64,000 bases of DNA from an uncultured Armatimonadetes bacterium (lineage in GTDB: Bacteria > Armatimonadota > UBA5829). Below are positions 39,669 to 40,789 of the stretch, one piece after another (the first letter of the stretch is position 1; each line of letters begins with the position of its first letter). Both the position numbers and the translations under genes were made by a program. Under the pieces are notes generated by a model, which was not told the DNA's origin, did not search any database, and was given only the letters and a program-made list of their open reading frames with translations. The stretch spans positions 899,298 through 963,297 of the forward strand of contig CAVQDB010000005.1 of assembly GCA_963711155.1 (NCBI GenBank). The letters run 5' to 3'.

Positions 39669-39890
39669 TCAGGCTGACGGTCCGCGCGCCGACCGCGCCT
39701 GAACGCACAGCGCGACCCCCAAAACTAACAACAAGATGCTTACCAGCCTGCCATGGCCCAGGCCCGGGTGTATGAGCCCGAACACCCCGGTGCCAGCCGA
39801 CAGCAGGCCCAGCAACAGGGGCATCCAGCGTCGCACTAGGGCCAAGCGTCTGTGGTTGTCCTGACTCATCTTCCACCTCTCCGGCGTCAA
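39669..39890 (-). CDS. Small two-TM membrane protein (candidate immunity/accessory)
   Basis: 73-aa ORF: 'WMPLLLGLLSAGTGVFGLI...LVSILLLVLGVALCV'. Confidence 0.4.
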   Translation of the reverse strand: MTPERWKMSQDNHRRLALVRRWMPLLLGLLSAGTGVFGLIHPGLGHGRLVSILLLVLGVALCVQARSARGPSA

Positions 39891-39912
39891 GTCGTAGGAG
39901 GCGAGCTCAGCA

Positions 39913-40197
39913 TCAGTTGGCGGGCGGCTGGTCCATGTCCTCGACCATCATGATGGCGAGACTTGCCAACGCAACCAAGCCCCCAACAAGCCCGGCTACC
40001 TCAAAGAGCACGCCGCCGTTCGGGACAGCAATGGCTTCCTGGGCGAGCGAGATGCCGAGTTCAATCCACGGCAGGCCCAAAGGTGGAGCACAGCCCGCAT
40101 TCGTAAGCATCGACAGTATGGCTCCCCCTACGCAGAGAAGTACCGCATCAAACATCCGGCTGGTCACTACTGCGCACAACACTCCAGTAATCGCCAA
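39913..40197 (-). CDS. Small Gly/Ala-rich hydrophobic protein (about 3 TM); either an immunity protein or the frame-shifted C-terminal toxin tip of the upstream Rhs fragment
   Basis: 94-aa ORF with a TTG start. It overlaps the last 50 nt of the Rhs ORF in another frame, and its frame opens right after the DPDGK motif. Confidence 0.4.
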   Translation of the reverse strand: MAITGVLCAVVTSRMFDAVLLCVGGAILSMLTNAGCAPPLGLPWIELGISLAQEAIAVPNGGVLFEVAGLVGGLVALASLAIMMVEDMDQPPAN

Positions 40198-40789
40198 GCC
40201 GGTACTCGACCTGCCTTAGGGTAAGCTTACCGTCAGGGTCGAGACTGTTAACCGGGTTATCATCGCAGTATGCGTACCAATTCGCCCCATTCCTCCCCGG
40301 ATCCTCGCTTACGAACCTCCCCAGCTCCGGGTCGTAGTAGCGGGCGCGCATGTAGGTCAGGCCGGTGTCGTCGGCTGTGTGGCCGAGTCCGCCGCAGAAC
40401 TCGTGCTTCGAGTCGGTCGAGCCCGTCACCGTGTCCGGTCGAGGCGCGCCGTAGACATCATACGCGCGCGTCGCGGTGACGATGGGATGGCCGGTCGCGT
40501 TATCGCCCTCGTCGATCTCCGCGAGCACGCTGCCAAGCCCGTCGTAGAGATACCACGACCGCGTCGGCGTCTCCGGTACGTCGTCCTGCCTATATTCTAC
40601 ACCACGCGGGCCCGCAAGGTAAGTCGCCACTGCCGAGCCCTCCACAAGCTCCTGCACCACGTTCTGACCGTCGAGCAGGTAGTCCGTGGTCGTGCTGTTC
40701 TCGCCCTCCGTGACCGTCATGCTCCGCCGCAGCCCGTCCGCGCCATACTCGAAGCTCGTCGTCACCCCGCCGACCGTGCACGACACCAT
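40148..40789 (-). CDS. Orphan Rhs/YD-repeat C-terminal fragment (core end + very short tip)
   Basis: YD repeats 'SFEYGADGLRR' and 'WYLYDGLGSV', Rhs core end 'YMRARYYDPELGRFVSEDP...NWYAYCDDNPVNSLDPDGK', then only 25 aa. No N-terminal Rhs body; a REP-C copy abuts the 5' end. Confidence 0.75.
   Translation of the reverse strand: MVSCTVGGVTTSFEYGADGLRRSMTVTEGENSTTTDYLLDGQNVVQELVEGSAVATYLAGPRGVEYRQDDVPETPTRSWYLYDGLGSVLAEIDEGDNATGHPIVTATRAYDVYGAPRPDTVTGSTDSKHEFCGGLGHTADDTGLTYMRARYYDPELGRFVSEDPGRNGANWYAYCDDNPVNSLDPDGKLTLRQVEYRLGDYWSVVRSSDQPDV
40301..40612. repeat. ~310-bp direct repeat (Rhs core-end DNA), copy 1
   Basis: Aligns by eye with 42131-42437 at high identity, with long identical runs such as CCCCAGCTCCGGGTCGTAGTAGCGGGCGCGCATGTAGGTCAGGCCGGT and CATCATACGCGCGCGTCGCGGTGACGATGGGATGGCCGGTCGCGTTATCGCCCTCGTC. 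Confidence 0.9.

Follow-up and report, generated by a model that had tools for sequence, protein, structure and literature searches.

The window, a stretch of 64,000 nucleotides on contig CAVQDB010000005.1 of an uncultured Armatimonadota bacterium, carries an orphan Rhs cassette on its minus strand (window 40849-39669). The cassette consists of three consecutive reading frames: the end of an Rhs core that stops 25 residues behind the motif DPDGK, a hydrophobic Gly/Ala-rich frame that overlaps this stop and is here called ORF B, and a small open reading frame (ORF) with two predicted transmembrane (TM) helices. We consider it rather probable that the first two belong to one membrane-directed toxin tip that was split by a +1 frame change, mostly an artefact of the assembly, and that the third encodes the two-TM immunity protein of this tip. 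The coordinates and sequences of all three frames were as described in an earlier note on this DNA. The features of the cassette are the following:

40229 to 40849, minus strand: headless end of an Rhs core that comprises the final YD repeats plus the C-terminal plug and finishes with ...YYDPELGRFVSEDP...NPVNSLDPDG (from TIGR03696 and the plug alignment)

40148 to 40228, minus strand: tail as assembled, a lysine and 25 further residues (LTLRQVEYRLGDYWSVVRSSDQPDV), ended by the TGA at 40150-40148 (from the sequence and the codon score)

40151 to 40215, minus strand: interval that would have to hold the +1 frame change, bounded on one side by the TAA in the frame of ORF B (40218-40216) and on the other by the TGA that ends the Rhs frame (40150-40148)

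39913 to 40215, minus strand: ORF B, hydrophobic Gly/Ala-rich frame of 100 open codons, giving 94 residues from the TTG at 40197 or 80 residues from the ATG at 40155

39669 to 39890, minus strand: small two-TM ORF, candidate immunity protein, 73 residues from the TTG at 39890 or 66 residues from the ATG at 39869

39873 to 39882, minus strand: Shine-Dalgarno-like sequence GGAGAGGTGG, 3 to 12 nucleotides upstream of the ATG at 39869

The Rhs fragment was identified by family and structure comparisons. Its ORF (40789 to 40148, minus strand) matches the RHS repeat-associated core domain TIGR03696 with E=1e-19 and 70.8 bits against a cut-off of 32.5, and the match covers residues 110-187, corresponding to 40462-40229 of the window. 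The YD repeat TIGR01643 was found at E=0.017, slightly under its cut-off. The fragment also aligns with the C-terminal plugs of solved Rhs and TcC proteins, including Tse5 (8cp6), with DPxG as the end of the alignment, and the motif PxxxxDPxG is present in the form of NPVNSLDPDG. Rhs-like sequence (…TNTWDSQNRMVSCTVGG…) extends 5' of the ATG to about 40849, where it adjoins a repetitive extragenic palindromic (REP)-like repeat. Since the Rhs-like sequence upstream of the ATG reaches this repeat, the fragment is headless: about 207 Rhs-like residues stand ahead of DPDG, and the shell (about 1000 residues or more) and the N-terminal delivery domain are missing. As assembled, the in-frame sequence past DPxG amounts to 25 residues after NPVNSLDPDGK, as had been noted before, and a tip of about 105 residues needs a +1 change in 40215-40151. 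The tail has a codon score of 0.21 per codon and is coding-like. In our reading, it forms the N-terminal linker of the actual tip.

ORF B overlaps the end of the Rhs ORF in the +1 frame ((40789-40197) mod 3 = 1). Its frame opens just after DPDGK behind the TAA at 40218-40216, three codons past the lysine codon, which agrees with the earlier observation, and stays open from 40215 to the TGA at 39915-39913. Coding potential was scored with a codon log-odds model trained on the long ORFs of the source genome. ORF B scored 0.29 per codon, a value that lies at the 35th percentile of true coding chunks and that only 1.5% of the shadow ORFs of similar length reached; the antisense ORF scored 0.03. 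The grand average of hydropathy of the protein is 1.04, and it contains 13 Gly, 14 Ala, seven acidic residues, no Lys and at most two Arg. Counted from the ATG at 40155, neither Lys nor Arg is present, and resident membrane proteins differ from ORF B in their Lys/Arg content. At the starts upstream of 40110, no well-spaced Shine-Dalgarno sequence was found for ORF B. In this genome, the Shine-Dalgarno core is present at 53% of the verified gene starts and at 13% of random positions.

The earlier note had seen in ORF B three TM segments and a resemblance to glycine zippers. Two stretches are clearly hydrophobic (KD15 of at least 1.8), whereas the third is a short amphipathic helix. The 100 residues contain one GxxxG (GLVGG) and two looser small-xxx-small-xxx-small motifs (GVLCAVVTS and AGLVGGLVA), but as a label glycine-zipper-like is weakly founded and overstated. 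The glycine-zipper Pfam family gave no match to ORF B at E values up to 0.1. An AlphaFold model computed from the single sequence has helices at residues 5-40, 49-62 and 68-94, with a predicted local distance difference test (pLDDT) score of 58. We read ORF B as the body of an Rhs toxin tip.

To determine the frequency of frame errors, 178 long ORFs were taken from a 400-kb portion of a complete same-genus genome. They were aligned to the assembly by tblastn, and 93 had an orthologue with at least 55% identity. About half of these conserved genes (48 of 93) were broken, with 76 frame changes in total or 0.60 per kb. Of these changes, 67 (88%) belonged to the +1 class, with one surplus base or two missing bases. 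The sites of the frame changes are not long homopolymers. Two genes beside the Rhs island are affected. The GH78 rhamnosidase gene (44755 to 42712, minus strand) is split by a +1 change and has its Pfam domains in order over the two pieces. The DUF1559 pilin-like gene (36078 to 36861, plus strand) appears to be split by a +1 change as well, with a family match for the first piece only. According to the codon score, the neighbouring Rhs cassette switches frame inside its 113-residue tip (42030-41880, minus strand) and inside its putative immunity gene (about 41476, minus strand). The earlier view that frame errors are frequent here was thus borne out. Changes of this class affect half of the conserved genes, which are presumably essential, and the default cause of such a frame change in this genome is therefore technical.

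The interval that would contain the +1 change, 40215-40151, has no homopolymer longer than two bases and includes one GTACC (40205-40201). Of the 40 frame changes that could be placed well, 4 had this motif at their site, where 0.65 would be expected (p=0.004, with five motifs tested). GCATC was not enriched at the frame-change sites (p=0.14), and in an open search for k-mers at these sites none survived correction. A k-mer comparison with the same-genus genome was useless, its base composition being strongly different. We give an interval and no exact site because the codon scores mildly disfavour the position of the GTACC.

The rate of natural junctions was estimated from crude gene calls in a clean genome of the same genus, where co-directional junctions with overlapping open frames were counted. 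Tight co-directional junctions occurred there at 0.15 per kb and 28% of them were of the +1 type, which amounts to 0.0425 per kb. Artefactual +1 changes occur at 0.53 per kb, and the odds over natural +1 junctions are therefore 12.5:1 before any context is considered.

Rhs tips in relatives are mostly 95-200 residues long, and a tip of 25 residues is atypical among them. In the source genome, four of the seven Rhs core ends have tails shorter than 50 residues, compared with 2 of 27 in the relatives (Fisher p=0.0096). Hydrophobic tips in frame with Rhs cores were found at six loci of related, high-quality genomes (L033, L038, L053, L054, L056 and L058), and at four of these (L033, L053, L056 and L058) an ORF with 2-4 TM helices directly follows the tip. 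The six tips are about 110-130 residues long and have Gly/Ala-rich helices; they come from genomes that share the order, the class or the phylum with the source genome. In Armatimonadota, Rhs tips that target membranes may be common.

For the small ORF the ATG at 39869, which is preceded by the Shine-Dalgarno-like sequence listed above, is a likelier start than the TTG at 39890. The 66-residue ORF begins 43 nucleotides past the stop of ORF B. It encodes two hydrophobic helices between Arg-rich N- and C-termini, as the positive-inside rule predicts. Its G+C content at third codon positions is 0.80, the same as in the Rhs fragment, and all alternative frames score worse. No homologues of the 66-residue ORF were found. 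Matches of the small ORF to a 2-TM effector and to SLATT were rejected since they were sub-threshold and compositional.

Homologues of ORF B were searched in several collections. A word-indexed search of 5.8 billion protein clusters returned only the 65-residue call from the window itself. A phmmer search of 1.84 billion representatives gave only two matches, both to long repeat proteins in which many stretches matched weakly, and these were rejected as compositional. A six-frame search of 60 relatives gave no match to ORF B below E=0.02, and back-translated scans of metagenome and genome contigs gave no homologue. These contig scans make it unlikely that a fused relative is hidden under a cluster representative at 50% identity. 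ORF B has no match in Pfam or NCBIfam, and no similarity to the hydrophobic Rhs tips of the source genome and the relatives was seen by phmmer or in shuffle-controlled alignments. A local likeness to a tip on contig C3 (DYGLFVIG... compared with EYGLAITG... in the second frame) was dropped as not significant.

By architecture only, the closest analogue appears to be Tse5 (PA2684) with Tsi5 (PA2683) of Pseudomonas aeruginosa; the Tse5 chains in the PDB have no sequence similarity to ORF B. Tse5 is an effector of the Rhs type whose C-terminal toxin forms pores, and it is paired with a membrane immunity protein (PMC9637101, PMC10684867). Its C-terminal fragment of 149 residues is enclosed by the Rhs shell and needs the aspartate D1141 of the plug protease for its release. 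The fragment becomes inserted in membranes, where it makes cation-selective pores, and it depolarises cells. For Tsi5, which is recovered in the inner-membrane fraction, two TM regions are predicted (PMC9637101, PMC10684867). The Rhs fragment of the window also ends in a DPxG aspartyl-protease plug, and the proposed tip would be small, hydrophobic and helical and has no enzymatic motif. Two TM helices are predicted for the candidate immunity protein next to it, which is a parallel to Tsi5. In contrast to Tse5, the proposed tip would have about 105 residues instead of 149 and would be acidic and lysine-free, and the cassette is a headless orphan whereas Tse5 is a complete effector. A search of the PDB with ORF B gave no match at E values up to 10, nor to the entries for Tse5, although the chain that the Rhs fragment had matched, 8cp6_B (1121 residues), may omit the toxin domain.

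Taken together, these results favour a fusion of the Rhs core end with ORF B. The +1 class makes up 88% of the frame errors in this genome, and the base rates are in favour of an artefact over a natural junction. A tip of 25 residues is atypical in the relatives, the codon usage of ORF B is coding-like, and related genomes repeatedly have a hydrophobic Rhs tip with a multi-TM ORF behind it. Moreover, ORF B does not carry the marks of an independent membrane-protein gene, neither a well-spaced Shine-Dalgarno sequence nor a Lys/Arg content of this kind, whereas the downstream ORF of 66 residues has a Shine-Dalgarno sequence and a positive-inside topology. Tse5 and Tsi5 provide an experimental precedent. 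The stop after 25 residues is probably due to a frame shift of the error-ridden assembly at this place. The earlier proposal of a one-indel fusion with the small two-TM ORF as immunity gene is therefore the best-supported explanation, with support that is statistical and contextual. We infer the fusion, the membrane toxicity and the immunity function from these data.

A number of observations speak against the fusion or the functions proposed for it. ORF B has no homologue, fused or stand-alone, in any collection searched, and there is thus neither a fused relative to confirm the architecture nor conservation to support the function. The AlphaFold model is weakly consistent with a linker followed by a hydrophobic helical body, at low confidence. 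The codon scores prefer the Rhs frame down to about 40186 and do not distinguish the two frames from 40186 to 40151; they mildly disfavour the GTACC at 40205-40201, as the Rhs frame is preferred for six codons more. The assembled arrangement is self-consistent in that the tail ends polar and there is an overlap of 8 nucleotides between the ATG at 40155 and the Rhs stop. Short tails do occur in clean genomes, as 2 of the 27 tips of relatives show, and in three relatives the first start of the small multi-TM ORF lies 18 to 76 nucleotides upstream of the stop of the hydrophobic tip. The candidate immunity ORF has an ambiguous codon score of 0.07 per codon that was reached by 21% of the shadow ORFs. 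Finally, the delivery route of Tse5 does not apply, as a gene for the sheath of the type VI secretion system was not found. TssC/VipB (PF05943) had no match in the whole genome, which is 60.6% complete and frame-shifted, so that its absence is not proven. Against this negative result stand the seven Rhs core-end matches of the genome, and delivery would have to differ from that of Tse5.

The locus could also be correct as assembled, which corresponds to the alternative offered in the earlier note. The Rhs fragment would then end in a degenerate stump of 25 residues, and ORF B (80 residues from the ATG at 40155) and the 66-residue ORF would be separate orphan immunity or accessory membrane proteins that were kept after the loss of the tip. 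The short overlap between the ATG and the Rhs stop, the comparable overlaps that the small multi-TM ORFs of the relatives seem to have, the occasional tips below 50 residues in clean relatives and the coding-like tail up to its stop would all fit, and immunity proteins against membrane toxins are typically small TM proteins, for instance Tsi5 (PMC9637101). However, natural tight +1 junctions are 12.5 times rarer than artefactual +1 changes, and the ATG at 40155 has no well-spaced Shine-Dalgarno sequence. From this ATG, the protein would have no Lys or Arg, which is odd for a resident inner-membrane protein. The arrangement also requires an in-frame loss of most of the tip, and short tails are significantly over-represented in just this error-ridden genome. 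We regard this explanation as unlikely. Less likely still is a genuine pseudogene, in which the +1 change would be a real mutation in a once-continuous tip and the cassette a dead and decaying orphan. Orphan rhs cassettes are under no selection on their toxin part and often decay, the frame switches of the neighbouring cassette, several within 1.5 kb, are denser than the genome average, and another Rhs fragment on contig C3 (381570-382196) has an in-frame stop that indel errors alone would not produce. On the other hand, the same class of change is found in half of the conserved, presumably essential genes, and ORF B has kept a good codon usage and 100 codons without an internal stop.

It is very improbable that ORF B, the 66-residue ORF or both are chance open frames in non-coding, GC-rich DNA behind a dead Rhs stump. 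Many spurious ORFs are expected in such DNA, neither ORF has a homologue or a family match, and the codon score of the 66-residue ORF is reached by about a fifth of the shadow ORFs. However, this is rarely the case for the score of ORF B. The 66-residue ORF has the third-position G+C content of the Rhs fragment, a Shine-Dalgarno sequence and a textbook two-TM topology, with all alternative frames being worse, and the layout matches that of the cassettes in relatives.

If the Rhs fragment and ORF B are joined, the cassette may work as follows. A +1 change, one surplus base or two missing bases and most likely an assembly error, would lie somewhere in 40215-40151. Reading through it would give a tip of about 100-110 residues that begins with a polar linker of about 12-25 residues (KLTLRQVEY...) and continues with the hydrophobic body encoded by the 94-residue ORF. 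By analogy with Tse5, the tip would be functional only when joined to a complete Rhs protein. The aspartyl protease of the plug would first cleave it behind DPxG, and it would then be carried unfolded within the YD-repeat shell. The tip would insert into the cytoplasmic membrane of the target cell and dissipate the membrane potential, and the 66-residue two-helix protein (ATG at 39869) in the membrane of the producer would neutralise it. Because it has no N-terminal delivery domain and no shell, the cassette would be silent by itself unless a recombination at the core end joins it to a full-length rhs gene. We propose, as a possibility and tentatively, that ORF B is the body of an unseen type of Rhs tip: about 105 residues long, lysine-free, acidic, strongly hydrophobic and membrane-depolarising, neutralised by a two-helix immunity protein of 66 residues and delivered by a route other than that of Tse5.

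Small hydrophobic toxin tips are also known from other carriers. The ionophoric CdiA-CT toxins of the EC93 group have small alpha-helical hydrophobic tips with a putative glycine-zipper helix, and small integral-membrane CdiI proteins neutralise them (PMC11630599). They resemble the proposed pair in the small hydrophobic helical tip and the small membrane immunity protein, but their carrier is the CdiA filament and not an Rhs shell, they have a separate cytoplasm-entry domain and use receptors such as AcrB, and no sequence similarity to them was detected. The LXG toxins of type VII secretion, such as EsxX, are glycine-zipper proteins that depolarise membranes (PMC12744356). They share a C-terminal hydrophobic Gly/Ala-rich domain and a membrane-located immunity with the proposed pair. 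However, their carrier domain and secretion system are different and their hosts are Gram-positive, and ORF B has just the one GxxxG and the two looser motifs.

Rhs proteins with pore-forming hydrophobic tips and two-TM immunity proteins are already known from Tse5 and Tsi5, and what is new here is a sequence that was seen nowhere else. If the fusion is true, it would add a member unrelated in sequence to a very small set of Rhs proteins with membrane-inserting, non-enzymatic tips, of which Tse5 is the one studied case. It would also raise the question of how such Rhs toxins are delivered in an uncultured phylum where no sheath gene of the type VI secretion system was detected, and membrane attack could be a favoured Rhs strategy in Armatimonadota. 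For the most part, however, the locus is a caution. About one frame change per 1.7 kb makes ordinary genes look like a truncated gene plus an overlapping orphan ORF, and for any oddity of this shape in the genome, a +1 frame artefact should be the first explanation to consider.

The cassette is one of two orphan cassettes in tandem, which have repeats of 350 bp with 88.6% identity in common. The repeated features of the locus, as found by blastn against the whole genome, are:

40266 to 40613, minus strand: core-end DNA, 88.6% identical to the neighbouring orphan fragment at 42095-42445

39548 to 39662, no strand assigned: REP-like intergenic repeat of about 115 bp, which closes the cassette

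about 40849 to 40965: second copy of the REP-like repeat, which opens the cassette

The core-end DNA is 88.6% identical to the neighbouring fragment over 350 nucleotides and 73-89% identical to fragments on contigs C3, C4 and C5. Judged from these sequences, it is a possible substrate for recombination between cassettes. The GH78 rhamnosidase gene lies upstream of both cassettes, where a full-length rhs gene is not found; the single long Rhs gene found in the genome is on contig C4. The REP-like repeat has more than 25 copies in the genome with 80-90% identity, spread over contigs C2-C5. Each Rhs cassette of the island is flanked by copies of it. The frame of the Rhs fragment is open from 40891, inside the REP-like repeat, and its first codons come from the repeat. 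Poole et al. 2011 and Koskiniemi et al. 2014 are said to have described orphan rhs-CT/rhsI modules downstream of rhs genes in Enterobacteria. The cassettes of the window are similar to these in their short core-homologous DNA, divergent tip and small putative immunity gene and in their tandem order. They differ in the GH78 gene upstream, in the REP-like repeats at their borders and in their host, an uncultured member of the Armatimonadota.

Other Rhs core ends of the genome show related features. The orphan fragment on contig C3 (381570-382196, minus strand) has a hydrophobic tail after DRDG, which forms a single helix of 33 residues up to the in-frame stop. The same frame runs on for about 90 more, partly hydrophobic residues and is followed by a TM-rich ORF, in a downstream region that reaches to about 380900. 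This fragment may be a second membrane-tip cassette that was broken in a different way. On contig C5 (1909046-1909748, plus strand), a core end with a tail of 48 residues is overlapped in the +1 frame by an ORF of 169 residues resembling a soluble domain, and here, too, a +1 frame change has probably divided a tip. It provided no positive control, as the tips of the same-genus Rhs genes are unrelated to it. In the neighbouring cassette, the Cys/Pro/Gly-rich middle of the tip looks like a wrong frame. The pentapeptide TLRQV is found both in the 25-residue tail and at the end of the tip on contig C4 and was taken as a chance match (shuffle p=0.044, uncorrected), without DNA similarity. The tail (40225-40211, minus strand) and this 75-residue tip of the long Rhs gene (C4:323285-323509, plus strand) have TLRQV and VEYxxGxY in common, but the two motifs are not colinear, probably also by chance.

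A scan of 39400-41000 with the sigma-70 consensus found no promoter-like site, and Rfam and terminator scans gave nothing meaningful. The window is part of a contig of 2.44 Mb in an assembly of five contigs and 5.64 Mb, and despite these five large contigs the marker completeness is 60.6%. A glyA-like gene of the window shares 86% identity with metagenome-assembled genomes of Armatimonadota. Six genomes of the same genus have sizes of 1.9-4.1 Mb, compared with the 5.64 Mb of the source genome (G000). In addition, AT-rich 4-mers are 5-10 times rarer in G000 than in the same-genus genome G003, and the gap between the two in size and composition is large for one genus.

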